Origin: Christensenellaceae bacterium
GTDB taxonomy: Bacteria > Bacillota > Clostridia > Christensenellales > Borkfalkiaceae
NCBI GenBank assembly: GCA_045637285.1
Contig: JAZTZE010000010.1
Location: 9,249 to 73,248, forward strand
Direction of reading: 5' to 3'
Length of the DNA: 64,000 nt
The position numbers were made by a program, and so were the translations under genes. The notes beneath the pieces are model-generated. The model did not search any database and was not told the origin of the DNA. It saw only the letters and a list, made by a program, of their open reading frames with translations. Below are positions 14,053 to 51,317 of this stretch, piece by piece (within the stretch, counting starts at the first letter, position 1; each line of letters opens with the position of its first letter).

Positions 14053-14772
14053 ATGACTTCAATAACAATAAGTGAAAGAGAGAATAACGACGCAAACTTA
14101 TTATACGTTCAGTCAAGCGCGGGAGAACTGTTTTCCCACGCTGACTGTTCGGTGCGTTCTAACCGTGTGAATAGCCGAGTGTTGTTGACTATAAATTGTC
14201 CGGAATGCTATTCGGAAATTATTCGCACGGAAGTGGCAGATAAAGTTGCAGAAATTATTGCAATCAAATATAAATATGATTTTTTCAAAAAAACGGTTAG
14301 CGTTGCGGGGTTGTCGGCAGAGCAAAAAGAAATTCTTATAGCAAGTTTAATAGCAGCGGATCTTGAAGACGACAAAAAGTATGTTTTCGACAAGATAAAA
14401 AATTGTGACGACGTGGCTATTGATGGAGTGTTCAACTTTAGACTAAAGCCATTAAAAAGAAAGTGGAACGACGTGGTTTCCTACGTTCCAGTATGCTTTT
14501 TAAGTGAGCAGTTAAAAGAGTTTGTTTCCTTTTTGCTTGAAAACAAAAGAAAAAGAGTTTATATCGAAGGTGGTAGAGTTTACGATTCGCATTATAGAAG
14601 GCTTAAACGAAGTAGTTTGTTAGATGGGGAAAAGATAAAAATAGTTAGAGAAGTGTTGTTGTCTAATTGTGGAGAGATAGAACTTTCGGGCGAAATACCA
14701 AAAGAAGATGAATATTATCTTAGAGAGTATTATAGTGATAAAATAATATTTTCGGGAAGAATAGGTCGATAA
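14053..14772 (+). CDS. ytxC: YtxC-like sporulation protein
   Basis: 239 aa with ...DGVFNFRLKPLKRKW.... Sits immediately upstream of the thrS leader, as ytxC-thrS does in Bacillus. Confidence 0.55.
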   Translation: MTSITISERENNDANLLYVQSSAGELFSHADCSVRSNRVNSRVLLTINCPECYSEIIRTEVADKVAEIIAIKYKYDFFKKTVSVAGLSAEQKEILIASLIAADLEDDKKYVFDKIKNCDDVAIDGVFNFRLKPLKRKWNDVVSYVPVCFLSEQLKEFVSFLLENKRKRVYIEGGRVYDSHYRRLKRSSLLDGEKIKIVREVLLSNCGEIELSGEIPKEDEYYLREYYSDKIIFSGRIGR

Positions 14773-14825
14773 AAGGTTGACAAAGAGAGAAATATATAGT
14801 AACATTATAATACAAAAGAAATTAG

Positions 14826-15040
14826 CCGACGATTAACGGACAAGTAGTGCCTTTTAGGTTTTTAAGAGAGCAAGGGTTAGGTGTGAGCCTTGTAAATTGA
14901 AAAGGAAAATGAAACCACCGTTTTAGGCAAAGTTACCGCACTTATAAGCGGAAAAGAGAGGCTGTTTATTGGGTAAACGGCAATTAAGGTGGAAACGCGG
15001 AAATTATTCGTCCTTAAAGCAATGCTTTAAGGATTTTTTA
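14826..15040 (+). promoter_or_regulatory. T-box riboswitch leader, threonine specifier ACC
   Basis: Stem I AACGG/CCGTT with AGUA on the 5' side and GAA-ACC-A on the 3' side (ACC at 14914-14916). AGAGA, GGTGTGA distal loop. T-box AATTAAGGTGGAAACGCGG (14982-15000). Terminator TCCTTAAAGC-aat-GCTTTAAGGA followed by T-run. Confidence 0.9.
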
Positions 15041-15059
15041 TATTTTAGGAGGATTTACA

Positions 15060-16991
15060 ATGAAAATTACGCTTAAAGACGGTTCTTTTTTAGATTTTGA
15101 AAGTGCCGTTAGCGTTGCTGACGTAGCAATGGCTATATCGGAAGGATTATTTAGAAACGCTGTTTGTGCAAAGGTTGACGGGCAACTCGTTGACTTATCT
15201 ACCCTTATAGAAAAAGACAGCGAAGTTGAAATAGTGACGCTAAAAGATAAAGAAGGGTTACAAGTATATCGTCACACGGTTGCGCACGTTTTAGCGCAAG
15301 CAGTAAAGAACGTTTTCCCGACTAGCAAGCTCGCTATTGGTCCTACCATAGAAAACGGATTTTATTACGATATCGAATTTAAAACGCCCATAACTCAACA
15401 AGATTTGGCTAAGATAGAAAGCGAAATGAAAGACATTATAAAAAGTGATTTCCCCATTGAACGCATAGTTTATTCTAAGCGTGATGCGGTTAAACTTTTC
15501 AAAGGTTTTTCAGAGCCCTATAAAGTTGAACTTATTAACGACCTTCCCGCAAACAGCGTGATATCGTGTTATAAGCAAGGTGATTTCGTTGACTTATGTC
15601 GCGGGCCACACCTTCCATCAACTGGCAAAATCAAAGCTTTCAAGCTTACGTCAATAACTGGTGCTTATTGGCGTGGGGACGAAAAGAACAAAATGCTTAC
15701 CCGTATTTACGGAACGGCATTTGCTAAAAAGTCTGAATTAGAAGAATATCTTACCGCTTTAGAAGAAGCTAAAAAGAGAGATCACAATAAACTTGGCAGA
15801 GAACTTGGAATTTTTATTACTGAAGACGTGGTTGGCCAAGGCTTACCGCTTTTGGGGCATAAAGGTGCGAAAATCATGCAAATTTTACAACGTTTTGTAG
15901 AAGACGAAGAAGAAAAGCGTGGTTTTATGCTTACCAGAACGCCTTATATGGCTAAGAATGACTTATATCGTATTTCAGGTCACTGGGATCATTATAGGGA
16001 CAAAATGTTTATTATAGGTGATGAAAACTCTCCCGAAGCGATGGCTCTTCGTCCTATGACTTGTCCTTTCCAATATCAATTGTATAGAAACGGCTTAAAG
16101 AGTTATAGGGACTTGCCATGCAGATATGCAGAAACTGCGCCTTTATTCAGAAACGAAGCGAGTGGGGAAATGCACGGGCTTATTCGTGTTCGCCAATTTA
16201 CTTTGTCAGACGGTCATATCGTTTGTACCCCCGAACAAATTGAAGGCGAATTTAGACGTTGTTTAGAGCTCACTTATTATTTCCTTGATTGCTTGGGAAT
16301 GAGAGATGACGTTACTTATCGTTTTTCTAAACGTGGAAACTCAAAGAGTGACAAATATATTGACAACGATAAGGCTTGGAATGAAACCGAAGCGTTGATG
16401 AAGGTTATTCTTGACAACATCGGTATTGACTACGTTGAAGCGGACGATGAAGCTGCTTTCTACGGACCTAAACTTGATATTCAAGCAAAGAACGTTTATG
16501 GAAAAGAAGATACTATTATCACTATTCAAATAGACTTTGCTGCAGCACACAACTTTGAAATGACCTATGTAGATGAAAACGGAACTAAGCAATATCCGTT
16601 CGTTATCCACAGAAGCTCAATTGGTTGCTATGAAAGAACTCTCGCAATGCTTATTGAAAAATATGCAGGAGCATTCCCGTTCTGGATTTGCCCCGTTCAA
16701 GTTAAGGTTATGAGCCTTACCGATAGAACGGCAGACTATGCAAAAGAAATAGTAGACAAACTCAAAATGGCTGGTTTAAGAGCAGAAGTTGACGTAAGAA
16801 ACGAAAAAATCGGCTACAAGATTAGAGAAGCTCAGCTTGAAAAAGTTCCTTACATGTTTATTGTTGGCGATAAGGAAAAGGAAGATAACGTTGTTTCCGT
16901 TCGCTCAAGAAAAGACGGGGATTTAGGCGTTATGTCTCTCGAAGAAATAACCTTAAAGCTTGTTGAAGAAGATCGTAGCAAAAAAGTTTAA
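15060..16991 (+). CDS. thrS: Threonine--tRNA ligase
   Basis: 643 aa. TGS domain, second additional domain (HTVAHVLAQA), class II core and anticodon-binding domain. AGGAGG RBS. Confidence 0.97.
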   Translation: MKITLKDGSFLDFESAVSVADVAMAISEGLFRNAVCAKVDGQLVDLSTLIEKDSEVEIVTLKDKEGLQVYRHTVAHVLAQAVKNVFPTSKLAIGPTIENGFYYDIEFKTPITQQDLAKIESEMKDIIKSDFPIERIVYSKRDAVKLFKGFSEPYKVELINDLPANSVISCYKQGDFVDLCRGPHLPSTGKIKAFKLTSITGAYWRGDEKNKMLTRIYGTAFAKKSELEEYLTALEEAKKRDHNKLGRELGIFITEDVVGQGLPLLGHKGAKIMQILQRFVEDEEEKRGFMLTRTPYMAKNDLYRISGHWDHYRDKMFIIGDENSPEAMALRPMTCPFQYQLYRNGLKSYRDLPCRYAETAPLFRNEASGEMHGLIRVRQFTLSDGHIVCTPEQIEGEFRRCLELTYYFLDCLGMRDDVTYRFSKRGNSKSDKYIDNDKAWNETEALMKVILDNIGIDYVEADDEAAFYGPKLDIQAKNVYGKEDTIITIQIDFAAAHNFEMTYVDENGTKQYPFVIHRSSIGCYERTLAMLIEKYAGAFPFWICPVQVKVMSLTDRTADYAKEIVDKLKMAGLRAEVDVRNEKIGYKIREAQLEKVPYMFIVGDKEKEDNVVSVRSRKDGDLGVMSLEEITLKLVEEDRSKKV

Positions 16992-17001
16992 AAATAAAAA
17001 A

Positions 17002-17034
17002 AGAGAGTAGCAAGTAGCTACTCTCTTTGCTTTT
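17002..17034 (+). terminator. thrS intrinsic terminator
   Basis: AGAGAGTAGC-loop-GCTACTCTCT followed by TTTGCTTTT. Confidence 0.75.
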
Positions 17035-17035
17035 A

Positions 17036-17076
17036 AAAAGTGAAAGCGGAGAGAACGAATATGTCTCTCCGCTTTC
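17036..17076 (-). terminator. Terminator of the YitT-family gene
   Basis: GAAAGCGGAGAGA...TCTCTCCGCTTTC, 13-bp stem, T-run on the minus strand. Confidence 0.7.
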
Positions 17077-17103
17077 GGTAGGAAATAATAAAAAACGTGT
17101 AGG

Positions 17104-17979
17104 CTATTTGATGCGATTAAACCCTTGTCCGTAAACTTCGTTTGCTTCGCAAACGATAACGAATGCGTGTTCATCAAGTTGTTTAATCATATTTTTCAAA
17201 GGAACTACTTGGTTATTTTTTACGCAAGTAAATAAAATTCCTTTTGGTGTTTTTGAATACATTCCTTCGCCTTGAATTAGCGTAACGCCACGCGGGCTGT
17301 GTGAAATGAGATAATCAGAAATTACTTCTGCTTTATCTGTTATTATGTAGCAGAGTTTTGCGTGGTTCAAACCCAAAACTATTAGGTCTGAAACCTTAGC
17401 ACTCACGAATATTAATATAAGGGCAAAGAGCACGTTTTCGGGCTTTGAAAGCATAGATGCACCCATAATTACCACCAACCCGTCAAACAAAGCAACGTGC
17501 GTTGCAATACTGCCGAATGGGATAACGTGATAGGTTAGTCTTCCCAATAATTCCGTTCCGCCACTGCTCGTTTCGTACTTTATAAAGAGTCCAATTCCAA
17601 TACCTTGTAACACACCGCCGTAAAGCCCAGCTAAAATGGGGTTGTCAGTAAGAGTTGTTAGCGAAGTTATCTGAGCAACGAAGCCACAAATTTCAGTAAA
17701 CAAACCTAACGTAGTCGTTGTGATGAAACATCTTAATATAAACATCCAACCCATAAGCTTAAATCCGAACAACAGAATTGGTATGTTGATTATGACTATG
17801 AATAGACCAGCGGGAAGACCGGTAAGAATTTCTATAAGTGAAGCTGCGCCACTAACTCCACCGCCAACTATTTGGTTGGGGATTAAAAAGATTGCAAGGC
17901 TTGATGCGTAGCAAATGCAACCTAAAATCATAAACGAATAACGCTTTATTTCGTTAATTATTGAATTGTTGTTTAACAT
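17104..17979 (-). CDS. YitT family membrane protein (with C-terminal DUF2179-like domain)
   Basis: Polytopic N-terminal region plus a C-terminal soluble domain (…GVTLIQGEGMYSKTPKGILFTCV…). ATG 17979 is preferred over the ORF-track TTG at 18003. Confidence 0.7.
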   Translation of the reverse strand: MLNNNSIINEIKRYSFMILGCICYASSLAIFLIPNQIVGGGVSGAASLIEILTGLPAGLFIVIINIPILLFGFKLMGWMFILRCFITTTTLGLFTEICGFVAQITSLTTLTDNPILAGLYGGVLQGIGIGLFIKYETSSGGTELLGRLTYHVIPFGSIATHVALFDGLVVIMGASMLSKPENVLFALILIFVSAKVSDLIVLGLNHAKLCYIITDKAEVISDYLISHSPRGVTLIQGEGMYSKTPKGILFTCVKNNQVVPLKNMIKQLDEHAFVIVCEANEVYGQGFNRIK

Positions 17980-18150
17980 ATTATTTCCTAAATGTATAAT
18001 CAATCATGCAATTAGCATTACTTTAATTTTATATATTATATTTGATAAAAAGAAATTTATCAAGTGTTTTTAAATAAAATTTTATTAAAAAATGTAATAT
18101 CATTATAACAATTTTATAATATTGAAAGGTAAAAGAATTTTAAAAACCAC

Positions 18151-18179
18151 TTGACTTTTAATGTTTTTATAACTATAAT
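18151..18179 (+). promoter_or_regulatory. Promoter TTGACT-17-TATAAT upstream of the MgtC-family gene
   Basis: TTGACT at 18151-18156 and TATAAT at 18174-18179. Confidence 0.5.
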
Positions 18180-18212
18180 AATAAAAATATATTTTTAGCA
18201 GGGAGAACATTA

Positions 18213-18887
18213 ATGCTTACATATTCATTTTTCGGAGAAGAATTTTTGATTTTAGACGTTGTTTTGAGAATCGTGTTGGCGTTGGCTTTAGGGTTTGCCA
18301 TCGGTTTTGAAAGAAAAATGCGCTTTAAAGAAGCAGGGGTAAGAACTCACACTATAGTTTGTATCGGTTCTTGTCTTTATATGGTAATTTCTATGTTTGC
18401 TTTTGAAGGGGCAGATACTTCGCGTGTTGCCGCTCAAATAGTAACGGGCATAGGTTTCTTGGGTGCAGGTATGATATTTTATCATAAAGAAATGGTTCAC
18501 GGATTAACTACGGCTGCCGGCATTTGGGCTACTGCTGCAATTGGTATGGCTGCAGGTGCAGGTTGGTATATAGTGTCTGTGGTTGCAACTATATTAATCA
18601 TTTTGTTGCAATGCATAATGCATACCAATTTTAAGGTTTTCCACTCGCACCACTTTGTTAAAATTAACATAGTGTTCGTGGAAACGGATGGAAAGCAAAG
18701 CGAAGAGATTAAAAATATGTTTAATATTAAGCGTTTTACTAAGGTTAACACTAAAAGGGATGGGGGAAAGCTCATTTCAAGTGTAGTAATAAGCACTGAT
18801 AAAGCGATAAATGCTAGAGAAATTTACAAATTCTTAAACGATAATCCAAACATAATAAGTATTGCGCGTCAAGACGACGATTTTTAA
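18213..18887 (+). CDS. mgtC: MgtC/SapB family membrane protein
   Basis: 224 aa. ...GFERKMRFKEAGVRTHTIVCIGS...GIGFLGAGMIF...GLTTAAGIWATAAIGMAAGAG, plus a C-terminal ACT-like domain. Confidence 0.85.
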   Translation: MLTYSFFGEEFLILDVVLRIVLALALGFAIGFERKMRFKEAGVRTHTIVCIGSCLYMVISMFAFEGADTSRVAAQIVTGIGFLGAGMIFYHKEMVHGLTTAAGIWATAAIGMAAGAGWYIVSVVATILIILLQCIMHTNFKVFHSHHFVKINIVFVETDGKQSEEIKNMFNIKRFTKVNTKRDGGKLISSVVISTDKAINAREIYKFLNDNPNIISIARQDDDF

Positions 18888-18911
18888 CGATTAATTGGTG
18901 CTGGAGAAATT

Positions 18912-19724
18912 ATGAAAAAAGATGTTTTAGGCAAAGATTTTGCTTGTGTTTCACAAAAAAAACTATTCTTGTTTGATCAAGATGGGACGATATATTTAGA
19001 TAATGAGTTGTTTGACGGCGTTTTGGAGCTAATGGATAAAATTAAAAGCGAAGGCGGAAACTATGTTTTTATAACAAACAACTCGTCCAAATCAGTGTCT
19101 GATTATGTTAAAAAATTAAACGACTTAGGGCTTAAGGAAGTTACAGAACAAAACTTTTTTACTTCTACGCAAGCCGCGGCGTTTTTGTTTAATGAAAAAT
19201 TTGGCGACAAGCTCGTTTACGTTCAAGGTACGTGCTCGTTTGTTAAAGAATTAAAAGAAATGGGCTTAAACGTTACCGAAGAATACACTGACGATGCTTG
19301 TGCTGTTTTGGTTGGCTTTGACTTGGAACTAAACATGGAAAAATTGCGCACTACGTGCAAAATGCTTACTAAGCATGATATTCCGTATTACGCTACTAAT
19401 CCCGACTGGGTTTGTCCTGTTGATTTTGGCTATATTCCTGATTGTGGGTCAATGTGTTTTGGTATAGAAAAAGCAACGGGAAAAGCTCCTATATATATTG
19501 GCAAGCCTATGCCACAAATGATTTATAGCGCAATGAAAAAATTCAACGCGACCAAAGAGCAAACGGTGGTGTTTGGCGATAGGTTATATACCGATATTGC
19601 GTCGGGGGTAAACGCAGGTGTTGACACGGTGTTTGTTCTAAGTGGTGAAGCAACCTTAAAGGATATGGAAGAAAGCGACGTTAAGCCTACTTTCGTGTTA
19701 AACAGCGTAAAAGATTTGCTGTAA
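18912..19724 (+). CDS. HAD-IIA family hydrolase (NagD-like sugar phosphatase)
   Basis: LFLFDQDGTIY (DxDGT), ITNNSS, and GDRLYTDI. Confidence 0.8.
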   Translation: MKKDVLGKDFACVSQKKLFLFDQDGTIYLDNELFDGVLELMDKIKSEGGNYVFITNNSSKSVSDYVKKLNDLGLKEVTEQNFFTSTQAAAFLFNEKFGDKLVYVQGTCSFVKELKEMGLNVTEEYTDDACAVLVGFDLELNMEKLRTTCKMLTKHDIPYYATNPDWVCPVDFGYIPDCGSMCFGIEKATGKAPIYIGKPMPQMIYSAMKKFNATKEQTVVFGDRLYTDIASGVNAGVDTVFVLSGEATLKDMEESDVKPTFVLNSVKDLL

Positions 19725-40926: not shown

Positions 40927-40988
40927 ATGTAAAAAAGTTGCCTAAAAATTTTAATTGTGTTAAAATCGAATTTAATGAGGTGACACGA

Positions 40989-41783
40989 ATGGAAATTATT
41001 GACGCACACGCACATATTTACCCCGAAAAGATTGCACAAAAAGCCACGGAAACGATTGGCGTTTTTTATGATATAAAAATGGAAATGCCTGCAGGCACGG
41101 CTGAAAGGCTAATTGAAGAAGGTGCGAAAGCAGGTGTTAAAAGATACGTCGTTCACTCTGTTGCAACTACCGCCCATCAGGTTCGTTCAATAAACCAATT
41201 TATAAAAAGTCAAATGGAAATTCACCCCGAATTTATTGGGTTTATGACGTTGCATCAAGACTTAACAGAAGAGCAGGTTAAATCAGAGATTGATTGGGCA
41301 ATTGAAAACGGGTTTAAGGGCATAAAATTACACCCTGATTTTCAAAAATTTAATATAGACGATCCGTTGGTGGAAAAGTTTTACGTTCACGCTGGGGGTA
41401 AACTTCCTATCCTATTTCATGTAGGCGACGATAGGTTTGATTATTCCAAGCCACAAAGACTTGTTAACGTTGCTAAAAAATTCCCGGCAGTTAACTTTAT
41501 TGCTGCCCATTTCGGTGGATACCGTTGCTGGGAAGACGCGCATATTTATAAAGGGCTAAGTAACGTTTATTTTGACACATGCTCGTCGCTCGCGTTCATA
41601 ACGCCCGAAAAAGCAAGGCAAATTATTGATATTCTTGGTGCAGATAAGTTCTTTTTTGCGACTGATTTTCCGATGTGGGATGCGGTGGGTGAACTTGAAC
41701 GTTTTAACAAAATAAATTTAAGCGAAAAAGAGCGCGAAATGATTTTTAGTCTTAACGTTAAAAAGTTGTTAAAAATCGTATAA
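40989..41783 (+). CDS. Amidohydrolase-2 / TIM-barrel metal-dependent hydrolase family protein
   Basis: MEIIDAHAHIYPEKI..., ...KLHPDFQ..., ...HFGG... and ...ATDFPMW. GAGGTGA RBS. The ORF-track TTG at 40938 is unlikely. Confidence 0.7.
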   Translation: MEIIDAHAHIYPEKIAQKATETIGVFYDIKMEMPAGTAERLIEEGAKAGVKRYVVHSVATTAHQVRSINQFIKSQMEIHPEFIGFMTLHQDLTEEQVKSEIDWAIENGFKGIKLHPDFQKFNIDDPLVEKFYVHAGGKLPILFHVGDDRFDYSKPQRLVNVAKKFPAVNFIAAHFGGYRCWEDAHIYKGLSNVYFDTCSSLAFITPEKARQIIDILGADKFFFATDFPMWDAVGELERFNKINLSEKEREMIFSLNVKKLLKIV

Positions 41784-41789
41784 AAATAC

Positions 41790-41819
41790 TTGACAAAATG
41801 CGGTTTTTGGATATATAAT
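41790..41819 (+). promoter_or_regulatory. Promoter P1, TTGACA-18-TATAAT
   Basis: TTGACA at 41790-41795 and TATAAT at 41814-41819. Confidence 0.65.
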
Positions 41820-41835
41820 ACACAAAAAAATAAAA

Positions 41836-42056
41836 CGCAATGAAGGAAACAGACGTTTTAAGTTGATTAGAGAATTGGCGGTTGGTGCAAGCCAAGGAAG
41901 CGAAAAACGTTACTCATTCCCGAGCGGAAACGGCGAACAATTTTAGTAGGCGTTTACGGAGCTTCCGTTACAAGCAAAGAGTGGCCACGAGTTTGTGGCA
42001 ATTCGGGTGGCACCGCGGTTTAATAATCGTCCCTGACAGTTTGTCAGGGCTTTTTT
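41836..42056 (+). promoter_or_regulatory. T-box leader 1 (complete Stem I). Best-geometry specifier is CUC (Leu), but the discriminator-reading base is C
   Basis: K-turn CGC-AAUGA-AGGAA / UUCC-C-GA-GCG. AGAGA at 41869-41873. Distal loop GGTTGGTGCAA. CUC-A at 41913-41916 directly 5' of the UUCC helix. F-box CCGTTA. T-box AATTCGGGTGGCACCGCGG. Terminator CCCTGACA-gtt-TGTCAGGG followed by T-run. Confidence 0.85.
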
Positions 42057-42108
42057 ATTTTTTAATCGTTTATAGTGTGCTAAAAAACCAATACACTCAA
42101 TTATTTGC

Positions 42109-42138
42109 TTGACATTCGGTGTGTTATTATTATATAAT
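42109..42138 (+). promoter_or_regulatory. Promoter P2, TTGACA-18-TATAAT, located between the two T-box leaders
   Basis: TTGACA at 42109-42114 and TATAAT at 42133-42138. Confidence 0.6.
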
Positions 42139-42164: not shown

Positions 42165-42352
42165 ATAAAAAGGAAGGGGATACGAAGCAAGCAATTTGCT
42201 TAAAGATGGAACGTATCAATCCGATGTATACGCACAAACCAGTAACCGTTTACGGATAACTCTGTTAAAGGTTTTAAGTGGCCGTGTTTTACGGCAATTC
42301 GGGTGGTACCGCGGTTATCAATCGTCCCTGACTTTACGTCGGGGATTTTTTA
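42165..42352 (+). promoter_or_regulatory. T-box leader 2 (paralogue of leader 1 with an atypical or abbreviated Stem I). Tentative specifier AUC (Ile)
   Basis: The 3' half is nearly identical to leader 1: CGTTTACGGA, CTGTTA, GCCGT/ACGGC stem III, AATTCGGGTGGTACCGCGG, and terminator TCCCTGAC...GTCGGGGA followed by T-run. No AGAGA or distal loop recognised. AUC-A at 42215-42218 precedes AUCC. Confidence 0.7.
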
Positions 42353-42383: not shown

Positions 42384-43763
42384 ATGAACAAAATTATCGT
42401 GTCAGACTCAACTTTAATATCGGTTAAAGAACAAAACTCAACGCTTACTTTCAGAGAAAGATTGGCTATTTCAAACTGCCTAAACTCTATGAAGGTTGAT
42501 GCAATCGAACTTCCCGCACTAACCGTTTCAAAAGAAGACGAAATAATCTATCGCACTATTTCAGATTCAATTACAAATGCAACCGTTAAAATATCAGTTG
42601 GTAGTGACGAAGCGTTAATAGCAAACGCAGTTGCTTGTGTCAAGAACGCAAGTGACGTTTGCTTGCAAGTAGTGATGCCCGTTTCTACGGCACAAATGGA
42701 ATATTTTTATCACCTTAAAGCTCCTGCTATGCAAGAAAAAATTTGCGCACTCGTTAAAAAGGCAAAGGAGTATTGCGACAAGGTTGAATTCGTCGCTCAA
42801 GACGCGTTCAGGGCAGAAGCAGGTTTTGTTGCTAATTGTGCTAAGTCTGCTTGTGAAACTGGCGCGACTTCAATCGTAATAAGCGATGATGCAGGCGACG
42901 CGTTTCCTGAAGACTTTGCAAAAATCGTAAAGGAAGTTAAGGGCGTTTGTGATCTTAAAGTTTTAGTTAAGCCGTCAAATAAACTTCAGTTATCAGCTTC
43001 CTGTGCGCTCGAAGCAATCAAGGCTGGAGCTGATGGTGTTGTTACTTCAGTTTGCGGTAATTATCTTTGCCCAAGCGTTATTTCCGATATCGTAAGGGCT
43101 AAAAAATTCGATCTTAACGTTGATTGCGATTTAGACGTTTGTAACGTTAAAACTATTAGCCAAATTATTAGCGGAATGGCTTGCGAACAAGTTCAAGCCG
43201 TGCAACAAGCAGGTGTTAACGGAAATATTGATACCAATGCAAGTGCATCTACCGTTTGTGCAATGATAAGTCAGCTTGGCTATGAGCTTTCTGATTCTGA
43301 TATAGGAAAAGTTTACGAAGAATTCAAAAAGTTATCGGCAAAAAAGGAATCTATCGACACAAAAGAGCTTGAAGCAATAATTGCAAGCACGGCTATGCAA
43401 GTCCCTTCAACCTATCATTTAATCAATTACGTTGTAAACAGCAGTAACATAATTTCTGCAACTGCAAACATAACGCTTGAAAAAGATGGCGAAAAATTAA
43501 CCGGTGTTTCTACGGGAGACGGACCTATTGACGCGGCATTCCATGCGATTGAACAAGTTATCGGACATCATTATGAGTTGGATGATTTCCAAGTTCACGC
43601 AGTAACAAAGGGCAGGGGCGCGGTTGGTTCTTCAATAATAAGACTTAGAGCGGACGGAAAGCTTTATCCCGGTAACGGTGTTTCTACCGATATTGTAGGA
43701 GCGTGTATCCGTGCATATATTAACGCTCTTAATAAAATCGTATACGAAGGAGAGCAAAAATGA
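42384..43763 (+). CDS. 2-isopropylmalate/citramalate synthase homologue with degenerate catalytic motifs and an intact LeuA-type C-terminal regulatory domain (probable pseudoenzyme)
   Basis: DSTLISVKEQ replaces DTTLRDGEQ. VKPSNKLQLSA replaces HxHNDxGLA. CGNYLCPS replaces GIGERAGN. C-terminus GDGPIDAAFHAIEQV...VHAVTKGRGAVG...NGVSTDIVGACIRAYINALNK is typical LeuA_dimer. Confidence 0.75.
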   Translation: MNKIIVSDSTLISVKEQNSTLTFRERLAISNCLNSMKVDAIELPALTVSKEDEIIYRTISDSITNATVKISVGSDEALIANAVACVKNASDVCLQVVMPVSTAQMEYFYHLKAPAMQEKICALVKKAKEYCDKVEFVAQDAFRAEAGFVANCAKSACETGATSIVISDDAGDAFPEDFAKIVKEVKGVCDLKVLVKPSNKLQLSASCALEAIKAGADGVVTSVCGNYLCPSVISDIVRAKKFDLNVDCDLDVCNVKTISQIISGMACEQVQAVQQAGVNGNIDTNASASTVCAMISQLGYELSDSDIGKVYEEFKKLSAKKESIDTKELEAIIASTAMQVPSTYHLINYVVNSSNIISATANITLEKDGEKLTGVSTGDGPIDAAFHAIEQVIGHHYELDDFQVHAVTKGRGAVGSSIIRLRADGKLYPGNGVSTDIVGACIRAYINALNKIVYEGEQK

Positions 43764-46210
43764 AACTCTCGTTCGTAGACAGCATGGTTCAAACGTCAAG
43801 TTTTTTGGAACTTTGTAACGTTGCAAAAAGCTATTCGTTCGACGGAATTGAAATTTTCGACGTTAAGAAAGAAAAAATCCAACACGCCGACAGTATATTC
43901 CGCTCAGCGATGACTGCAGATGCCAAAAGAAAACTTGTAAATAGACATATTGCAATTTCCGCAATATCATATCCTAATAAAATTAATTCAAAAACATCGG
44001 TTCAAGACGTCAACAAATACGTGGAATACGCTGCGCTTGCTTCAATCAAAAACGTTGTAGTAGTGCTTGATGATTTTGATTGTTTAGATAGCATCAAAGG
44101 CGTTTTATCTCCGATTATCGACTTTGCAAGCTTAAACGGCGTTAGCATTTTGATTGAAACTTGCGGTGATATGAGCAGAACTGAAAAGGTTTTGGAAGTT
44201 ATAAACTACTTTGGCTCAATCGTGTTAAAAGTTTGTTGGAATATTCGCGAAACATTTTTCAACGCAAAGGAAAGTGCAGACAACACCATTCAAACCTTAG
44301 GCGCGTACATAGCGCACGTTCGTTTAGGAGACAGAAAGGACGGAAAAGACGTTCTTCTTGGTGAAGGGGAACTTCCAGTTGTCGACTTTATTAACGCTCT
44401 TCGTTCGCTTAATTACGACGGGTACGTTTCGGTTATGAGTTCGGGCGAAATAACTTCTGCTGATATTATTCTCACTCACTATAAAAGCCGTTTATCTATA
44501 AGTTCAAGAGAAGTTAGCAACAAAGCCGTATATTACAACCGTTCAAAAACAGGCACGCATCCTTGGAAGAAATACGACGTTTTAGACGTAACTTTTTCAC
44601 AAGTGCTCGATAAGATGGTTGAATATTATCCCGACCAATACGCTTTTAAGTATACCACGCTCGATTATACAAGAACCTATTCTGAATTTAGAGACGATGT
44701 GGATAGGGTTGCGGCTGCGCTCATTTCACTTGGCGTTGAGCCGGGGCATCACGTTGCTATTTGGGCAACGAACGTTCCACAATGGTTTTTAACTTTCTGG
44801 GCAACGGTAAAAATCGGTGCTGTTTTAGTTACGGTAAACACCGCTTATAAAATTCACGAAGCAGAATATTTGTTCCGACAATCAGACACGCATACTCTCG
44901 TTATGATTGACAGTTGCAAAGATTCTAACTACAAAGAAATCGTTGAAGAACTTTGTCCCGAACTTAAGAATACGCAAGCGGGAAACCCGCTTTACTCGAA
45001 AAAGTTACCATTCTTGCGCAACGTTATAACCGTTGGCTTTAATATGGACGGATGCTTAGAGTGGAACGATTTTGTTAAACGTTCTTCACTTATTCCACAA
45101 GAAGAAGTTCGTCGCAGAGCTTCAACCGTTCAACCTGACGACGTTTGCAATATGCAATACACTTCGGGAACAACAGGCTTTCCTAAGGGTGTAATGCTCA
45201 CGCATAGAAACATTGTTAACAACGGCAAGATAATCGGCGACAGGATGGATATTTCAACTGCCGATAGAATGATGATACAAGTGCCTATGTTCCACTGCTT
45301 TGGCATGGTGCTTTCAATGACGAATATGATGACACACGGCGGAACCATTTGTCCGATGCCGTATTTCTCACCAAAATCGTCGCTTGCTTGTATTAACGAC
45401 GAAAAAATCACTTGTTTTAACGGCGTTCCTACAATGTTTATTGCAATGTTTGCACATTCTGACTTTGCAAAAACTGACTTTTCACATATCCGCACGGGAA
45501 TAATGGCTGGTGCAAATTGCCCGCCCGAATTGATGAGAAAGGCTGCTGCGGAAATGAATATGTCCGAAATTATAAGCGTTTACGGTCAAACCGAGGCTTC
45601 CCCTGGTTGTACAATGGGAGAAGTTAACGAAGATATAGATCACCGTGTTGAAACGGTTGGGAGTGCGTTCCCAGGTGTAGAGTGTAAAATTATTGACCCA
45701 GAAACTGGCGAAGAGTTGCCTGACGGTGAAAACGGTGAATTCGTTGCTCGTGGCTATAATATAATGAAAGGTTATTATAAAATGCCAAAAGCAACCGAAC
45801 AAACTATTGACGCTGACGGATGGCTTCACAGCGGAGATATTTGCTGTAGAACTCCAGACGGATATTTTAAGGTAACCGGCAGATTAAAGGATATGATTAT
45901 TCGTGGTGGCGAAAACTTGTATCCGAGAGAAATAGAAGAGTTTTACCTTACACACGAAAAGGTTAAAGACGTTCAAGTCGTTGGCGTTCCAGACAAGAGA
46001 TACGGCGAAGAAGCTTGCGCGTATATCGTTCTTAAAAAGGGTGAAAGCTCTGACGAAAACGAAATGCGCGAATACGGCAACGCGCACATGGCAAAACACA
46101 AAGTGCCAAGATATTTCGTGTTCGTGAAAGACTTCCCAATGAATGCTGCGGGCAAGATATTAAAGTATAAAATGCGTGAAGACGCTATAGAAATATTAAA
46201 TTTGAAATAA
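43760..46210 (+). CDS. Fusion protein: xylose-isomerase-like TIM-barrel domain (about aa 1-250) plus AMP-forming acyl-CoA synthetase (about aa 260-816)
   Basis: N-terminal half has FDGIEIF, SILIETCG, and HVRLGD...LGEGELPVVDFINALRSLNYDGYVSV. C-terminal half has MQYTSGTTGFPKGVMLTH, GQTE, WLHSGD, GRLKDMIIRGGENLYP and AAGKILK. Confidence 0.8.
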   Translation: MKLSFVDSMVQTSSFLELCNVAKSYSFDGIEIFDVKKEKIQHADSIFRSAMTADAKRKLVNRHIAISAISYPNKINSKTSVQDVNKYVEYAALASIKNVVVVLDDFDCLDSIKGVLSPIIDFASLNGVSILIETCGDMSRTEKVLEVINYFGSIVLKVCWNIRETFFNAKESADNTIQTLGAYIAHVRLGDRKDGKDVLLGEGELPVVDFINALRSLNYDGYVSVMSSGEITSADIILTHYKSRLSISSREVSNKAVYYNRSKTGTHPWKKYDVLDVTFSQVLDKMVEYYPDQYAFKYTTLDYTRTYSEFRDDVDRVAAALISLGVEPGHHVAIWATNVPQWFLTFWATVKIGAVLVTVNTAYKIHEAEYLFRQSDTHTLVMIDSCKDSNYKEIVEELCPELKNTQAGNPLYSKKLPFLRNVITVGFNMDGCLEWNDFVKRSSLIPQEEVRRRASTVQPDDVCNMQYTSGTTGFPKGVMLTHRNIVNNGKIIGDRMDISTADRMMIQVPMFHCFGMVLSMTNMMTHGGTICPMPYFSPKSSLACINDEKITCFNGVPTMFIAMFAHSDFAKTDFSHIRTGIMAGANCPPELMRKAAAEMNMSEIISVYGQTEASPGCTMGEVNEDIDHRVETVGSAFPGVECKIIDPETGEELPDGENGEFVARGYNIMKGYYKMPKATEQTIDADGWLHSGDICCRTPDGYFKVTGRLKDMIIRGGENLYPREIEEFYLTHEKVKDVQVVGVPDKRYGEEACAYIVLKKGESSDENEMREYGNAHMAKHKVPRYFVFVKDFPMNAAGKILKYKMREDAIEILNLK

Positions 46211-46229: not shown

Positions 46230-47294
46230 ATGGAAATCAAAATTGAAAAAGCAAAAGTATTAAAACAAAAACCCGATTTTTCAAAACTCGGTTTTGGTAA
46301 ATATTTTACCGACCACATGTTTGTGATGGAATACACCGAAGGTGAAGGCTGGAAAAATGCGAGAATAGTCCCGTTCGATTATATTCCCATTCACCCTGCA
46401 TCTACCGTTCTTCATTACGGTGCGGAAATTTTTGAAGGCATGAAAGCTTATAGAACGGCAGACGGATATCAAATGTTCCGTCCGTTAGAAAACGTTAAAA
46501 GAATGAACGATTCAGCAGAAAGACTTTGTCTTCCCACACTTCCTGAAGAGTTTACTTTGAAAGCTTTAACAGAGCTTATTAACATTGACTACGATTGGAT
46601 TCCCGACCAAGAAGGAACGTCTCTTTATATTCGTCCTTTCATGTTTGGTAACGACGAGTCGTTGGGCGTTCACGCTGTTCACAACGCAACTTTCGTTATA
46701 ATCTTATCGCCTGTTGGCAGTTATTACGCAGAAGGTCTTAATCCTGTTAAAATCAGCATTGAAAGTGAAGACGTTCGTGCCGTTCGTGGTGGAACGGGCT
46801 ACGCTAAGTGTGGTGGTAATTACGCTGCAAGTTTAAGAGCGGGCAAACGCGCTGCTGAAAAAGGCTTTACGCAAGTATTGTGGCTTGACGGGGTTGAAAG
46901 AAAATACATCGAAGAAGTTGGCGCAATGAACGTTATGTTCAAGATTAACGGCGAAATCGTTACGCCTATGCTCACAGGTTCAGTTCTTCCCGGTATAACA
47001 AGAAAATCTTGTCTTGAAATCTTAAAAGAATGGGGCTATAAGGTAACCGAAAGACTAATTTCAGTTGACGAACTTATAGCTGCTGCACAAGACGGAACAC
47101 TTGAAGAAGCGTGGGGCACTGGCACTGCTGCGGTAATTTCACCCATCGGTCACTTGTTCTATAAGGACGTTGACTATACAGTTGCAGGCAACAAAATCGG
47201 TCCGCTCGCTCAAAAACTTTACGACGAAGTTACTGGCATTCAATGGGCTAAGAGAGAAGACACGCGTGGCTGGTGCTATAAGGTTAAAGTTTAA
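46230..47294 (+). CDS. ilvE: Branched-chain amino acid aminotransferase
   Basis: 354 aa class IV aminotransferase. ...FTDHMF..., HYGAEIFEGMKAYR, GGTGYAKCGGNYAASL and GITRKS. Confidence 0.92.
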   Translation: MEIKIEKAKVLKQKPDFSKLGFGKYFTDHMFVMEYTEGEGWKNARIVPFDYIPIHPASTVLHYGAEIFEGMKAYRTADGYQMFRPLENVKRMNDSAERLCLPTLPEEFTLKALTELINIDYDWIPDQEGTSLYIRPFMFGNDESLGVHAVHNATFVIILSPVGSYYAEGLNPVKISIESEDVRAVRGGTGYAKCGGNYAASLRAGKRAAEKGFTQVLWLDGVERKYIEEVGAMNVMFKINGEIVTPMLTGSVLPGITRKSCLEILKEWGYKVTERLISVDELIAAAQDGTLEEAWGTGTAAVISPIGHLFYKDVDYTVAGNKIGPLAQKLYDEVTGIQWAKREDTRGWCYKVKV

Positions 47295-47962
47295 TGTTTG
47301 ATAAAAGAATTACGGTGTTCATGGGGCATTACGGTAGTGGAAAGACCTTTATTTCGGTTAATTACGCACTCGCTCTTGCTAAAATGAACAAAAAGGTAAG
47401 CATCTACGATTTGGACATAGTAAATCCTTATTTCAGAACCAAAGATGCAACTAAAATGTTAGACGACAACGGTGTTGAGTTAGTTGTTTCTAAGTTTGCC
47501 CAAACCAACGTGGATATTCCTGCAATGAACGCAAAGTCTTATAAAATGCTCGACGACACTTCTCGCTATGCTGTAGTAGATATCGGTGGTGACGACAGGG
47601 GAGCTTTGGCTTTGGGAAGATTTCGTGACGGAATTATTAAAGAAAACGACTATCAAGCGTTGTTTGTTGTTAATAATCGTCGTCCTGAAACTCGCGACAT
47701 TGAAGGTGCGATGGAAATAAAAGCAGAAATAGAGCAAAGTGGCGGGCTTAAATTCACAGGGATAGTCAACAATGCTAATTTAGGCTGGGAAACTACGGAA
47801 AAAACCGTGCTTGACGGCGTTGAGTTTACCAATGAACTTTCAAAAATAACGGGTCTACCCGTAAAATTTACCGCAATCAGAAAAGATTTGATTACGGGAG
47901 AATTATTAAAAATAAAACAAATTTTGCCGATTGAGCCTATAAAATACGGCGATTGGCAGTAA
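47294..47962 (+). CDS. SIMIBI-class P-loop NTPase (MinD/CooC/Mrp-like), function unknown
   Basis: 222 aa. Walker A GHYGSGKT, and VVDIGGDD. Start overlaps the ilvE stop (TAATG). Confidence 0.65.
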   Translation: MFDKRITVFMGHYGSGKTFISVNYALALAKMNKKVSIYDLDIVNPYFRTKDATKMLDDNGVELVVSKFAQTNVDIPAMNAKSYKMLDDTSRYAVVDIGGDDRGALALGRFRDGIIKENDYQALFVVNNRRPETRDIEGAMEIKAEIEQSGGLKFTGIVNNANLGWETTEKTVLDGVEFTNELSKITGLPVKFTAIRKDLITGELLKIKQILPIEPIKYGDWQ

Positions 47963-47972
47963 AGGAGAAAAC

Positions 47973-48179
47973 ATGGCAAAAGTAACTTTTGACGAAGAGC
48001 GTTGCAAAGGTTGTGGATTGTGTGAAACCGTTTGCCCTAAGCAAATTATCGCACTTTCAAACGAAAAAATCAACGCTAAAGGCTATCATCCGGCAGTTTG
48101 TACCGACTCGGAAAAATGTATTGGTTGTGCTTTTTGTGCAACAATGTGTCCCGACACGGTTATAACGGTGGAAAAGTAG
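47973..48179 (+). CDS. 2-oxoacid:ferredoxin oxidoreductase delta subunit (2x[4Fe-4S] ferredoxin)
   Basis: 68 aa with CKGCGLCETVCP and CIGCAFCATMCP. Confidence 0.9.
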   Translation: MAKVTFDEERCKGCGLCETVCPKQIIALSNEKINAKGYHPAVCTDSEKCIGCAFCATMCPDTVITVEK

Positions 48180-48188
48180 AGGTGAATT

Positions 48189-49259
48189 ATGGCAGAAAAA
48201 GTATTAATGAAAGGTAACGAAGCTTTAGCCGAAGCGGCTATAATGGCAGGTTGCAAATATTATTTTGGTTATCCCATAACCCCGCAAACTGAAGTTGCTG
48301 CATATATGAGTAAGCGCATGCCCAAGATTGGCGGAACGTTTTTACAAGCAGAATCAGAAGTAGCGGCAATTAACATGGTAATTGGCGTTGCTGCTTGCGG
48401 TAAAAGGGTTATGACCAGTAGTTCAAGCCCAGGAATTTCATTAAAGAGCGAAGGTATATCTTATCTTGCTGGTTGTGATCTTCCTGCATTAATAGTAAAC
48501 GTTCAACGTGGCGGTCCTGGTTTAGGTGGTATTCAACCTTCTCAATCAGACTATTTCCAAGCGTTGAAAGGTGGCGGTCACGGTGACTACAAACTTATCG
48601 TTTTAGCACCTGCTTCTATTCAAGAAATGGTTGATTTAACGTTCAAGGGCTTTGACCTTGCTGATAAGTATAGAATGCAAGCAATGATTCTTGCAGACGG
48701 AACGATGGGTCAAATGATGGAACCGGTTAGCTTAGAGCTTGGCGAAGTAAAAGAATACAAAAAAGATTGGGCAACCACTGGTACGAGTACGCACGAAGGA
48801 AGAAATGTTGTTAACTCGTTGTCACTTAACGCTACTCAACTTGAACAATGGAATATCGACAGATATGAAAGATATAAAATCGTTGAACAAAACGAAGTTA
48901 TGTATGAAGAATTTATGATGGACGACGCTGATATTTGTATCGTTTCTTTCGGTATCGCTGCTCGTGTTTCAAAGAATGCGATTATGATGGCAAGAGAAAA
49001 GGGTATAAAGGTTGGTATGATTAGACCTATCACGTTATGGCCATTCCCCAAGGATGCGTTGCTTAAAGCTGCGGGCAAGGTTAAATCATTCTTATCAGTT
49101 GAACTTAATATGGGACAAATGGTTGATGACGTTAAACTCGCTATCAACTGCTCTAAGCCCGTATATTTCTACGGCAGAACTGGTGGCGTTATTATGACGC
49201 CGGACGAAGTTCTTGCTAAAATCGAACAAATCGAAAAAGGAGAAGCAAAACAATGGTAG
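48189..49259 (+). CDS. 2-oxoacid:ferredoxin oxidoreductase alpha subunit (VorA/KorA type)
   Basis: 356 aa. MKGNEALAEAAIMAGCKYYFGYPITPQTE... Confidence 0.88.
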   Translation: MAEKVLMKGNEALAEAAIMAGCKYYFGYPITPQTEVAAYMSKRMPKIGGTFLQAESEVAAINMVIGVAACGKRVMTSSSSPGISLKSEGISYLAGCDLPALIVNVQRGGPGLGGIQPSQSDYFQALKGGGHGDYKLIVLAPASIQEMVDLTFKGFDLADKYRMQAMILADGTMGQMMEPVSLELGEVKEYKKDWATTGTSTHEGRNVVNSLSLNATQLEQWNIDRYERYKIVEQNEVMYEEFMMDDADICIVSFGIAARVSKNAIMMAREKGIKVGMIRPITLWPFPKDALLKAAGKVKSFLSVELNMGQMVDDVKLAINCSKPVYFYGRTGGVIMTPDEVLAKIEQIEKGEAKQW

Positions 49260-49999
49260 TATTTGAAAAGACTAAAGGTCTTACAGACAATCCACTTCAC
49301 TATTGTCCGGGTTGCACGCACGGGATTATTCACCGTTTGGTTGCAGAATGCTTAGAAGAACTTGGCGTTACCGGCAAAACCATCGGTATAGCTTCAGTTG
49401 GCTGTTCTGTATTCTCTTATAATTATTTCAACTGTGATATGGTTCAAGCTGCACACGGCAGAGCACCTGCGGTAGCAACGGGCGTAAAGCGTGCTAACCC
49501 CGATAACATTGTATTTACTTATCAAGGCGACGGAGACCTCGCTGCAATCGGCACGGCTGAAACCGTTCATTCTGCAGCAAGAAACGAAAACATAACCATT
49601 ATTTTCGTTAACAACGCTATTTACGGTATGACTGGCGGTCAAATGGCTCCTACGACACTTCCTAACCAAGTAACGCAAACTTCACCTTACGGTAGAGACG
49701 TTACGGTTGTTGGCTATCCCGTTAGAGTTTGTGAAATGCTTTCTCAAGTTGAAGGTGCTTCATATCTCGAAAGAGTTGCAGTAAACAACGTTAAGAATAT
49801 CAAAAAAGCAAAACAAGCTATTAAGCATGCTTTCCAAAACCAAATAGAAGGCAAAGGTTTTTCTCTTATCGAAGTGTTATCAACTTGTCCGACGAACTGG
49901 GGTTTATCGCCCAAGGAATCATTAAAGTGGCTTGAAGAGAACATGGAAAAGAATTATCCTCTCGGTGTTTATAAAGACAAATATAAGGAGGAAAAATAA
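49253..49999 (+). CDS. 2-oxoacid:ferredoxin oxidoreductase beta subunit (TPP-binding)
   Basis: 248 aa with CPGCTHG, GDGD..AIG and NNAIYGMTGGQ. Confidence 0.9.
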   Translation: MVVFEKTKGLTDNPLHYCPGCTHGIIHRLVAECLEELGVTGKTIGIASVGCSVFSYNYFNCDMVQAAHGRAPAVATGVKRANPDNIVFTYQGDGDLAAIGTAETVHSAARNENITIIFVNNAIYGMTGGQMAPTTLPNQVTQTSPYGRDVTVVGYPVRVCEMLSQVEGASYLERVAVNNVKNIKKAKQAIKHAFQNQIEGKGFSLIEVLSTCPTNWGLSPKESLKWLEENMEKNYPLGVYKDKYKEEK

Positions 50000-50535
50000 T
50001 GAGTAAGACTACGAAAATACTTATTGCAGGCTTTGGTGGACAAGGTATTTTGTTTGCGGGTAAGGCTTTAGCGTTTACTGGGCTTAAATCAGGTATGGAA
50101 GTTAGTTGGCTTCCTTCTTACGGTCCTGAAATGCGCGGTGGCACGGCAAACTGTAGCGTAACGTTAAGTGATATTCCAATCGGTTCTCCGATTGTAGATA
50201 AACCTGACGTTTTGGTTGCGATGAACTTGCCTTCTTTAGAAAAGTATTTAAGCGAAACAGAAAAATCTGGCTACGTTATTTACGACAGCTCACTTATTTC
50301 TAAGGACGTTGAAAGGGCAGATGTTTCTATTTCAGGTATTCCCGCAACAAAAATGGCAAGCGATAACGGACTTAACGGACTTGCAAATATGATTATATTA
50401 GGCAAGGTAATCAAAGAAACTGGTGTTTTATCACTTGAACAAATCAAAACGAGCTTAGCACAAATGATTCCAGCTAAAAAAGCACATTTATTAGAAAGCA
50501 ATGTAAAAGCTATTGAATTAGGCTATAATTTCTAA
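49999..50535 (+). CDS. 2-oxoacid:ferredoxin oxidoreductase gamma subunit
   Basis: 178 aa. ILIAGFGGQGILFAGK...SYGPEMRGGTANC. Confidence 0.9.
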   Translation: MSKTTKILIAGFGGQGILFAGKALAFTGLKSGMEVSWLPSYGPEMRGGTANCSVTLSDIPIGSPIVDKPDVLVAMNLPSLEKYLSETEKSGYVIYDSSLISKDVERADVSISGIPATKMASDNGLNGLANMIILGKVIKETGVLSLEQIKTSLAQMIPAKKAHLLESNVKAIELGYNF

Positions 50536-50551
50536 TTATAAACGCAATTAA

Positions 50552-50582
50552 AAACGGAGTAGAAATGCTCCGTTTTTTTTGT
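50552..50582 (+). terminator. Strong intrinsic terminator ending the T-box operon
   Basis: AACGGAG-tagaaatg-CTCCGTT followed by eight T. Confidence 0.8.
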
Positions 50583-50640: not shown

Positions 50641-51273
50641 ATGTCGTTTTTCTGTAATTTTCAATCGGATAGATGTCCCGGGCAAATAAACGGAAATCCG
50701 TTAAACGGCTTGTGTGAAAAAGTTTGTGTGCAAGCAAAAAAGGTGTTTGACGCGTGCATGCAACAAACTCAGCTTAACAACGTAGTATTAAACGTCACTA
50801 ATTTAACGCCAGCAAATCCTACATATCCGTTAACGTTTATAAGTGCCAAAAGCACTGCTTCACAAGGAGTAATAAGCAATCTTATTATAGAACCACTTGC
50901 GGAAAGACCAAACTGTGCAAGAGTAAAAACAGACGTTATTATTCCCGTTTCGGTTGCTTATACCGACGCTAACGGCGTTGAAGGAGTTGGTACTGCTACA
51001 GTTACGGTCACTAAAGACGTTATATTAAACGTTCCGTCTGCTTCAATCATGCCATATAGTGTAGAATCAGTTGTTTCACTTGTTTCGACGTTGGGTGCAT
51101 ACAACACGGGAAATCAATTCACTATTGACGCTTGTGTTTCCATAATATTAAAAATCGTTATGGAAGTTGAATTGCTTATTCCATCTTACGGATATGCAGC
51201 AATTCCACCTTGCCAAGACTACACGCAAGAAGTATGCGCGGGATTTTTCGAGCTTCCAATGTATCCTGATTGA
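50641..51273 (+). CDS. Cys-rich hypothetical protein (monocistronic), no family recognised
   Basis: 210 aa. AAAGGAGG RBS. N-terminal CNF..C..C..C..C cluster, beta-rich middle, C-terminal PPCQDYTQEVC. Confidence 0.6.
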   Translation: MSFFCNFQSDRCPGQINGNPLNGLCEKVCVQAKKVFDACMQQTQLNNVVLNVTNLTPANPTYPLTFISAKSTASQGVISNLIIEPLAERPNCARVKTDVIIPVSVAYTDANGVEGVGTATVTVTKDVILNVPSASIMPYSVESVVSLVSTLGAYNTGNQFTIDACVSIILKIVMEVELLIPSYGYAAIPPCQDYTQEVCAGFFELPMYPD

Positions 51274-51289
51274 TAAAGTTTAATATTAA

Positions 51290-51317
51290 GAGCGTGAGCT
51301 TTCTCACGCTTTTTTTA
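51290..51317 (+). terminator. Intrinsic terminator
   Basis: AGCGTGAG-cttt-CTCACGCT followed by seven T. Confidence 0.75.

Follow-up and report, generated by a model that had tools for sequence, protein, structure and literature searches.

A catalytically dead LeuA paralogue paired with an acyl-CoA ligase as a candidate leucine sensor in gut and rumen Clostridia

The window analysed here, a stretch of 64,000 nucleotides from a Christensenellaceae bacterium (assembly GCA_045637285.1, contig JAZTZE010000010.1, positions 9,249 to 73,248 of the forward strand), contains an operon that opens with a gene for a LeuA-like protein, a relative of 2-isopropylmalate synthase (IPMS). The same operon unites an AMP-forming acyl-coenzyme A (acyl-CoA) ligase, a VOR-type 2-oxoacid:ferredoxin oxidoreductase (VOR) with its ferredoxin, and a branched-chain amino acid aminotransferase (BCAT). 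The LeuA-like open reading frame (ORF), which has lost its catalytic residues and retained its regulatory domain, is organized as follows:

42384-43763, + strand: LeuA-like ORF, 459 amino acids (aa), ATG start
42384-43187, + strand: catalytically dead DRE-TIM barrel, aa 1-268 (predicted from Pfam HMGL-like, AlphaFold2, Foldseek and residue mapping)
43188-43268, + strand: variable linker in place of accessory subdomain I (alignments, low model confidence and dN/dS 0.15)
43269-43763, + strand: accessory subdomain II and LeuA_dimer regulatory domain, aa 296-459 (Pfam, conservation and selection analysis)

Comparison of the LeuA-like protein with Pfam revealed HMGL-like (PF00682) over residues 18-226 (86 bits) and LeuA_dimer (PF08502) over residues 325-452 (103.9 bits, gathering threshold 24.9). 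It scored below the NCBIfam equivalog cutoffs for LeuA, with NF002086 as the best model (228.7 bits, cutoff 532) and TIGR00973 at 205.7 bits (cutoff 598.7), and reached about 40 bits against CimA models. Catalytic residues were mapped by pairwise HMMER alignment to solved IPMS barrels, including that of Neisseria meningitidis IPMS (3rmj), and again in a MAFFT alignment of Escherichia coli LeuA, two canonical LeuAs and members of the new family. In the DTTLRDGEQ motif, involved in 2-oxoacid binding and providing a metal ligand, R13, D14 and E16 of E. coli LeuA correspond to I12, S13 and K15, while the HxH metal ligands H202 and H204 correspond to K196 and S198. The catalytic Glu (E. coli E141) is replaced by Q139, at a position that varies across the family, and the Glu-Arg-Ala of the GIGERAGN loop is deleted. 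An earlier sequence-only reading of the window had described the DTTLRDGEQ, HxHNDxG and GIGERAGN motifs as replaced; the residue mapping confirms this. The loss is wider than that reading had listed: the family protein lacks about 36 residues present in E. coli LeuA, and these include the HSSGIHQDG motif (HxSGIHQDG) of accessory subdomain I.

The fold of the barrel is predicted to be preserved. AlphaFold2 modelled it with a predicted local distance difference test (pLDDT) score of 80-94, and a Foldseek search with this model retrieved the IPMS barrels 3eeg and 3ewb (template modelling score, TM, 0.89-0.90; root mean square deviation 2.3); the top structural match was 6e1j, a Brassica juncea methylthioalkylmalate synthase (MAM) structure with about 409 modelled residues. 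Judged by its sequence, this is a paralogue of 2-isopropylmalate synthase that has become catalytically dead.

The protein belongs to a large family. A word-indexed search returned more than 120 clusters at 64-100% identity, all of about 456 aa and, where named, annotated as 'hypothetical protein'. When a library of 50%-identity cluster representatives was scanned exhaustively with HMMER, 230 proteins matched below 1e-30, about 105 of which are full-length (453-497 aa) and as low as 31% identical, and canonical-length LeuAs appeared in the same scan only around 1e-45. In a joint alignment the Arg-Asp pair, the HxH motif, GERAGN and the subdomain I segment are missing from all of these approximately 105 full-length representatives, not one of which carries an HxH, whereas two canonical LeuAs keep all four elements; the family positions matching E. 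coli R13 and D14 hold K, R or I, followed by a variable residue. A scan of one genome per species in GTDB, with a 12-sequence alignment as the query, detected the family in no fewer than 589 species, the majority of them Clostridia from gut and rumen that belong to the Christensenellaceae, Acutalibacteraceae, Oscillospiraceae and Lachnospiraceae, together with some metagenome-assembled genomes (MAGs) of Spirochaetales. Several short LeuA_dimer proteins with unrelated N-termini (library matches P0222, P0231, P0234, P0240 and P0254) first seemed to be alternative fusions and were set aside; their N-termini (MFS, MBOAT, TGT, 7TMR-HDED, lectin and others) appear random, so that these proteins are most likely chimeric metagenome assemblies.

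Selection was assessed domain by domain, with mean identity to the window protein calculated over 64 loci and the ratio of nonsynonymous to synonymous substitution rates (dN/dS) estimated by the Nei-Gojobori method from 36 close pairs:

LeuA-like barrel: mean identity 43%, dN/dS 0.10
linker replacing subdomain I: dN/dS 0.15
subdomain II: mean identity 57%, dN/dS 0.055
LeuA-like regulatory domain: mean identity 72%, dN/dS 0.014
xylose-isomerase-like TIM barrel (XylTIM) of the ligase protein: mean identity 48%, dN/dS 0.074
ligase domain: mean identity 84%, dN/dS 0.025

Since the same losses recur in about 105 representatives under purifying selection, they are neither chance events nor a sequencing artefact. 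A decaying pseudogene is ruled out by the dN/dS values and the distribution of the family, and the proposal of the sequence-only reading that the protein is a pseudoenzyme is borne out by the family-wide loss of catalytic elements combined with strong purifying selection. As far as constraint on the sequence can tell, the regulatory domain is the functional core of the protein and the dead barrel is maintained alongside it. Good conservation of the C-terminal domain had likewise been anticipated, from LeuA_dimer strings that are present as quoted, and it holds at 72% identity against 43% for the barrel. PF08502 is matched by all 46 diverse family members examined, and the regulatory domain is 40-44% identical to those of canonical LeuAs. 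The G-[DN]-G-P-[IV]-D-A loop of LeuA regulatory domains is kept, with G378, G380 and G415 invariant in the family. The last of these aligns with G462 of E. coli LeuA, a feedback-resistance site at which the substitution G462D is the standard feedback-insensitive leuA allele (PMC6345581). In experiments, an isolated PF08502 domain acted as an autonomous sensor module that binds amino acids, and the PF08502 domain of CimA binds isoleucine (PMC13381585).

Immediately downstream of the LeuA-like gene lies the gene for an 816-aa fusion protein:

43760-44500, + strand: N-terminal XylTIM domain (Pfam AP_endonuc_2)
44582-46210, + strand: AMP-forming acyl-CoA ligase domain (Pfam AMP-binding, 323 bits, and AMP-binding_C)

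The proteins of the window operon were mapped onto 83 loci of the family, and gene pairing was counted wherever the locus offered room for it. The XylTIM-ligase gene was directly 3' of the LeuA-like gene in all 65 such loci (43-69% identity) and in the four most divergent loci that were looked up (31-34% identity), for a total of 69/69. The gap between stop and start codons has a median of 1 nt and does not exceed 50 nt in 64 of the 65 loci; in the window the two genes share an ATGA stop/start overlap (43760-43763), as the sequence-only reading had reported. That reading had put forward two possible partners for the pseudoenzyme, the downstream ligase and the 2-oxoacid:ferredoxin oxidoreductase (OFOR). 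The ligase stands, and the OFOR was rejected, because in other genomes the VOR genes change position or strand or do not occur within the 10-kb flank. As BCAT and VOR genes shift among genomes while the ligase is always adjacent, the conserved unit is the LeuA-like/ligase pair and not a LeuA-like/OFOR pair.

The ligase motifs YTSGTTGFPKG and YGQTE and the A10 lysine are invariant in 65 sequences. The ligase domain is about 84% identical across different families of Clostridia and Spirochaetales, compared with about 45% for its fused domain and the neighbouring LeuA-like gene, a level of constraint that would fit a multi-partner interface. The XylTIM domain was modelled by AlphaFold2 with a pLDDT of 92, and Foldseek matched it to generic sugar epimerases only (TM about 0.75, 12-18% identity). 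Its metal-ligand set is incomplete, with two of the four canonical ligands replaced (an Asp by the conserved Asn161, and the last Glu lost), while invariant polar residues such as E133, N161, R163, E171 and D191 are kept. Never found free-standing, the XylTIM domain may be a second degenerate barrel, perhaps serving as a docking platform.

Many loci also contain two further ligase paralogues of 755-801 aa, each with N-terminal HTH_19 and Cupin_2 domains; in L023, for example, they occupy positions 14176-16443 and 16699-19104, between the LeuA-like/ligase pair and the BCAT/VOR genes. These HTH-cupin proteins may be the ligases that act on the other branched-chain acids, with a separate sensor domain in each.

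The LeuA-like gene is preceded by a leader of 600 nt that consists of two tandem units, each with a perfect sigma-70 promoter, a T-box and a terminator:

41790-41819, + strand: sigma-70 promoter 1, TTGACA-18-TATAAT (12/12 consensus)
41831-42037, + strand: T-box leader 1 (Rfam RF00230, 116.6 bits, gathering threshold 93)
41913-41915, + strand: specifier codon of T-box 1, CUC (Leu), placed by the Stem I pairing GGAA/UUCC and conserved in alignments
42031-42064, + strand: terminator of T-box 1, 8-bp GC-rich stem and T tract
42109-42138, + strand: sigma-70 promoter 2 (12/12 consensus)
42200-42346, + strand: T-box leader 2, with a canonical 3' half and a truncated Stem I (RF00230, 55.4 bits, E=2e-11, below gathering threshold)
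42324-42346, + strand: terminator of T-box 2

In a profile alignment of the upstream regions, 53 of 63 loci carry a Leu codon in the specifier column (CUC in 52 and CUG in one). This Leu-codon T-box provides a link to leucine that the sequence-only reading had not seen. In the proximal T-box, Stem I is truncated in the window and not alignable among relatives, and no specifier could be read from it. The proximal T-box reads AUC (Ile) in the close relatives L007 and L017, which suggests dual Leu/Ile control; by analogy with these two loci, an AUC in a small hairpin of the window's own proximal T-box is a candidate specifier.

The remaining genes of the operon, downstream of the ligase, are:

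46230-47294, + strand: BCAT, IlvE type II (NCBIfam NF009897, 467.9 bits, cutoff 307)
47294-47962, + strand: Cys-free P-loop NTPase, CbiA/MinD-like, Walker A GHYGSGKT (Pfam CbiA and ParA at about threshold)
47973-48179, + strand: 68-aa 2x[4Fe-4S] ferredoxin, VOR delta-like (two CxxCxxCxxxCP motifs; Pfam Fer4 on orthologues)
48189-50535, + strand: 2-oxoacid:ferredoxin oxidoreductase alpha (VorB), beta (thiamine pyrophosphate-binding) and gamma subunits (Pfam POR_N, PFOR_II, TPP_enzyme_C and POR)
50550-50577, + strand: operon terminator, 12-bp stem and T tract

VorB scored 550 bits against NF005507 (cutoff 399). In each locus with a detected ferredoxin/VOR block, the P-loop NTPase gene is directly 5' of the ferredoxin gene. 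In other genomes the BCAT, P-loop NTPase, ferredoxin and VOR genes are located upstream or on the other strand, or lie beyond the 10-kb flank.

Several further features were observed around these loci. An Amidohydro_2 (PF04909) gene, at 40938-41783 of the window, accompanies the module; it lies just 5' of the leader in Christensenellaceae-like loci and directly after the ligase gene in many others. At 50641-51273 the window encodes a Cys-containing ORF of 210 aa with no Pfam match and its own terminator (51288-51313), and an ORF of the same size occupies the equivalent position in L001. A near-threshold match to the Gut-1 RNA (48.6 bits, gathering threshold 50) was found just 3' of the operon in L002 (18417-18490, - strand). 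In L085 (3626-7514), the most divergent member examined (31% identity), an ABC transporter composed of an ATPase, two permeases and an SBP_bac_1-type binding protein is encoded directly upstream on the same strand, and no T-box was detectable.

Taken together, the dead LeuA paralogue has, in our estimate, about an even chance of being a leucine sensor, acting as a non-catalytic subunit that controls an isovalerate-activating ligase in an isovalerate-carboxylation route to leucine. In such a route, uncharged tRNA-Leu would turn on transcription of the operon through the CUC T-box, and the ligase would convert isovalerate, possibly along with other branched-chain acids, into its CoA thioester. 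The ferredoxin-dependent VOR would then reductively carboxylate the isovaleryl thioester to 2-ketoisocaproate, which BCAT would transaminate to leucine. The retained LeuA_dimer domain would dimerise and bind leucine as in LeuA, and the dead barrel and subdomain II would relay the leucine signal to the ligase, whose N-terminal TIM barrel may be where they dock, so that plentiful leucine would throttle the ligase as the first, ATP-consuming step. We infer the ligase substrate, the direction of VOR flux, the binding of leucine and the physical complex. The biosynthetic direction is favoured because of the AMP-forming type of the ligase and the induction expected from uncharged tRNA-Leu, and a leucine-sensing, non-catalytic ligase subunit appears to be the most economical role because the regulatory domain is extremely constrained and its gene translationally coupled to that of the first ATP-consuming enzyme. 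That the dead LeuA serves throughout the family as a leucine-sensing allosteric subunit of an isovalerate-CoA ligase is a proposal we hold tentatively, at somewhat less than an even chance.

Several observations weigh against this interpretation. AlphaFold2 modelled the regulatory domain with a pLDDT of 33-58, from a shallow alignment, and that half of an otherwise confident model was left uninterpreted, so that the effector pocket could not be inspected; nor did the regulatory domain alone, when compared with the PDB by sequence, yield a usable match for homology mapping of the pocket. A fusion of the LeuA-like protein with the ligase was sought among the 150 best representatives and none was seen. 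The best NCBIfam model of the ligase, PRK12583, is generic and scored below its cutoff, which leaves isovalerate as a putative substrate. No T-box was detectable in 10 of the 63 loci, nor in the four most divergent loci. Leucine binding and the complex with the ligase enter the scheme as inference. In IPMS, subdomain I is needed for transmission of the allosteric signal (His379 and Tyr410; PMC9860122), and with its deletion any signalling in the LeuA-like family must take a path other than that of IPMS. Finally, as the PF08502 domain of CimA binds isoleucine, the effector need not be leucine.

The strict gene pairing and translational coupling would also be expected if the ligase strictly required the LeuA-like protein as a structural, activating or scaffolding subunit but not as a sensor of amino acids, for instance to channel acyl-CoA to VOR, with LeuA_dimer kept as no more than a dimerisation and docking module. 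The extreme conservation of the regulatory domain could then mark a protein-protein interface rather than a ligand pocket, and the deletion of the subdomain required for IPMS allostery would be readily accommodated. Such a role is nevertheless unlikely in our judgement, given that the invariant residues are the ligand-loop signatures of LeuA, including the equivalent of G462, mutation of which abolishes feedback in E. coli, and that the Leu T-box makes expression of the module depend on leucine status; moreover, HisZ, discussed below, combines activation with sensing, so that the two roles partly overlap. It is less probable still that the protein senses a different effector (isoleucine, valine, 2-ketoisocaproate or isovaleryl-CoA), bound either by the regulatory domain or by a remnant pocket of the barrel. 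The isoleucine-binding domain of CimA, the second T-box of the window operon together with the AUC codons of proximal T-boxes in close relatives, and the conserved residues at beta-strand ends of the barrel (D8, E106, Y107, K112, D140, R143 and D168), which evolves at a dN/dS of 0.10, are compatible with this option. It is opposed by the profile scores of the regulatory domain, which are far higher with models of LeuA (229 bits) than with those of CimA (about 40 bits), by the Leu codon read in 53 of 63 loci by the T-box tied to the gene pair, and by the disappearance of the barrel metal site that anchors 2-oxoacids.

Purifying selection on both TIM barrels (dN/dS 0.10 and 0.074), each of which keeps some invariant polar residues, would be explained as well by a neofunctionalised enzyme in which the LeuA-like barrel, alone or with the TIM domain of the ligase, formed a new metal-independent active site for some unknown step. 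This appears quite improbable, as all residues known to be required for DRE-TIM metallolyase chemistry are lost and their replacements vary among members, a pattern not to be expected of a new catalytic site; of the structured parts of the protein, the barrel is conserved least, and the predicted pathway needs no extra chemical step. The weakest candidate, which we regard as very improbable indeed, is a regulator that acts on VOR or BCAT, or elsewhere, with its adjacency to the ligase incidental: the VOR, BCAT and ferredoxin genes do share its operon in the window and in many relatives, but many other loci have VOR and BCAT upstream or in divergent orientation, or lack them within 10 kb, whereas the ligase gene is the neighbour in every case.

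It has long been known that fibre-degrading anaerobes of the rumen and gut use branched-chain fatty acids as growth factors, which is why these acids are fed to dairy cattle, and the physiology of the route from isovalerate to leucine has been known since the 1960s. No account of which bacterial genes encode this acid-to-amino-acid route, or of how it is controlled, was found in the literature, and searches for a dead IPMS, for this regulon and for a ligase regulated in such a manner likewise found no prior description. The locus offers a complete and testable gene set (ligase, VOR, ferredoxin and BCAT) in which leucine is sensed explicitly by the RNA and plausibly by a protein as well. If the leucine-sensing role is correct, it would identify the genes of this pathway in at least 589 gut and rumen species, together with two layers of control (Leu T-box and leucine allostery), and would provide the first ANL-family ligase under the control of a pseudoenzyme subunit. 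It would also be a clean natural case, joining HisZ, in which catalysis was abandoned while the allosteric domain was retained and redirected to the regulation of an unrelated enzyme. Of practical consequence is annotation: the family is currently labelled 'hypothetical protein', and domain-based annotation could mis-call its members as LeuA, which would falsely predict leucine prototrophy via the isopropylmalate pathway in hundreds of gut MAGs.

Among known systems, the closest in architecture is LeuA itself (EC 2.3.3.13; TIGR00973 / PRK00915), which shares the DRE-TIM barrel, subdomain II and the C-terminal LeuA_dimer domain; leuA or ilv-leu operons in Firmicutes also begin behind a Leu T-box. 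Unlike LeuA, the family lacks the Arg-Asp pair, HxH, the catalytic Glu, GERAGN and subdomain I and scores less than half of the equivalog cutoffs, and the conserved neighbour of its gene is an acyl-CoA ligase and not leuBCD. The plant MAM is likewise an IPMS derivative that arose by domain-level change. It kept catalysis and lost the regulatory domain, the opposite outcome to that of the LeuA-like family, in which catalysis was lost and the regulatory domain kept. The PF08502 domain of CimA and the IlvH/IlvN subunits of acetohydroxyacid synthase are comparable as separable amino-acid-binding modules of branched-chain pathways (PMC13381585); however, the CimA domain regulates its own barrel and IlvH is of the ACT type, and neither is carried on a dead barrel or paired with an ANL ligase. 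In functional terms the nearest parallel is the HisZ/HisG system, where a non-catalytic paralogue steers the first enzyme of an amino-acid pathway, as may be the case here, where catalytic loss is accompanied by purifying selection and obligate coupling. HisZ is a catalytically inactive paralogue of histidyl-tRNA synthetase. The folds and the partner differ between the two systems, and the role of HisZ was shown experimentally, whereas the complex and the effector are here proposed. HisZ is described as the regulatory subunit of the short-form ATP phosphoribosyltransferase HisG(S), which both activates this first pathway enzyme and mediates its end-product inhibition (PMC9734150).

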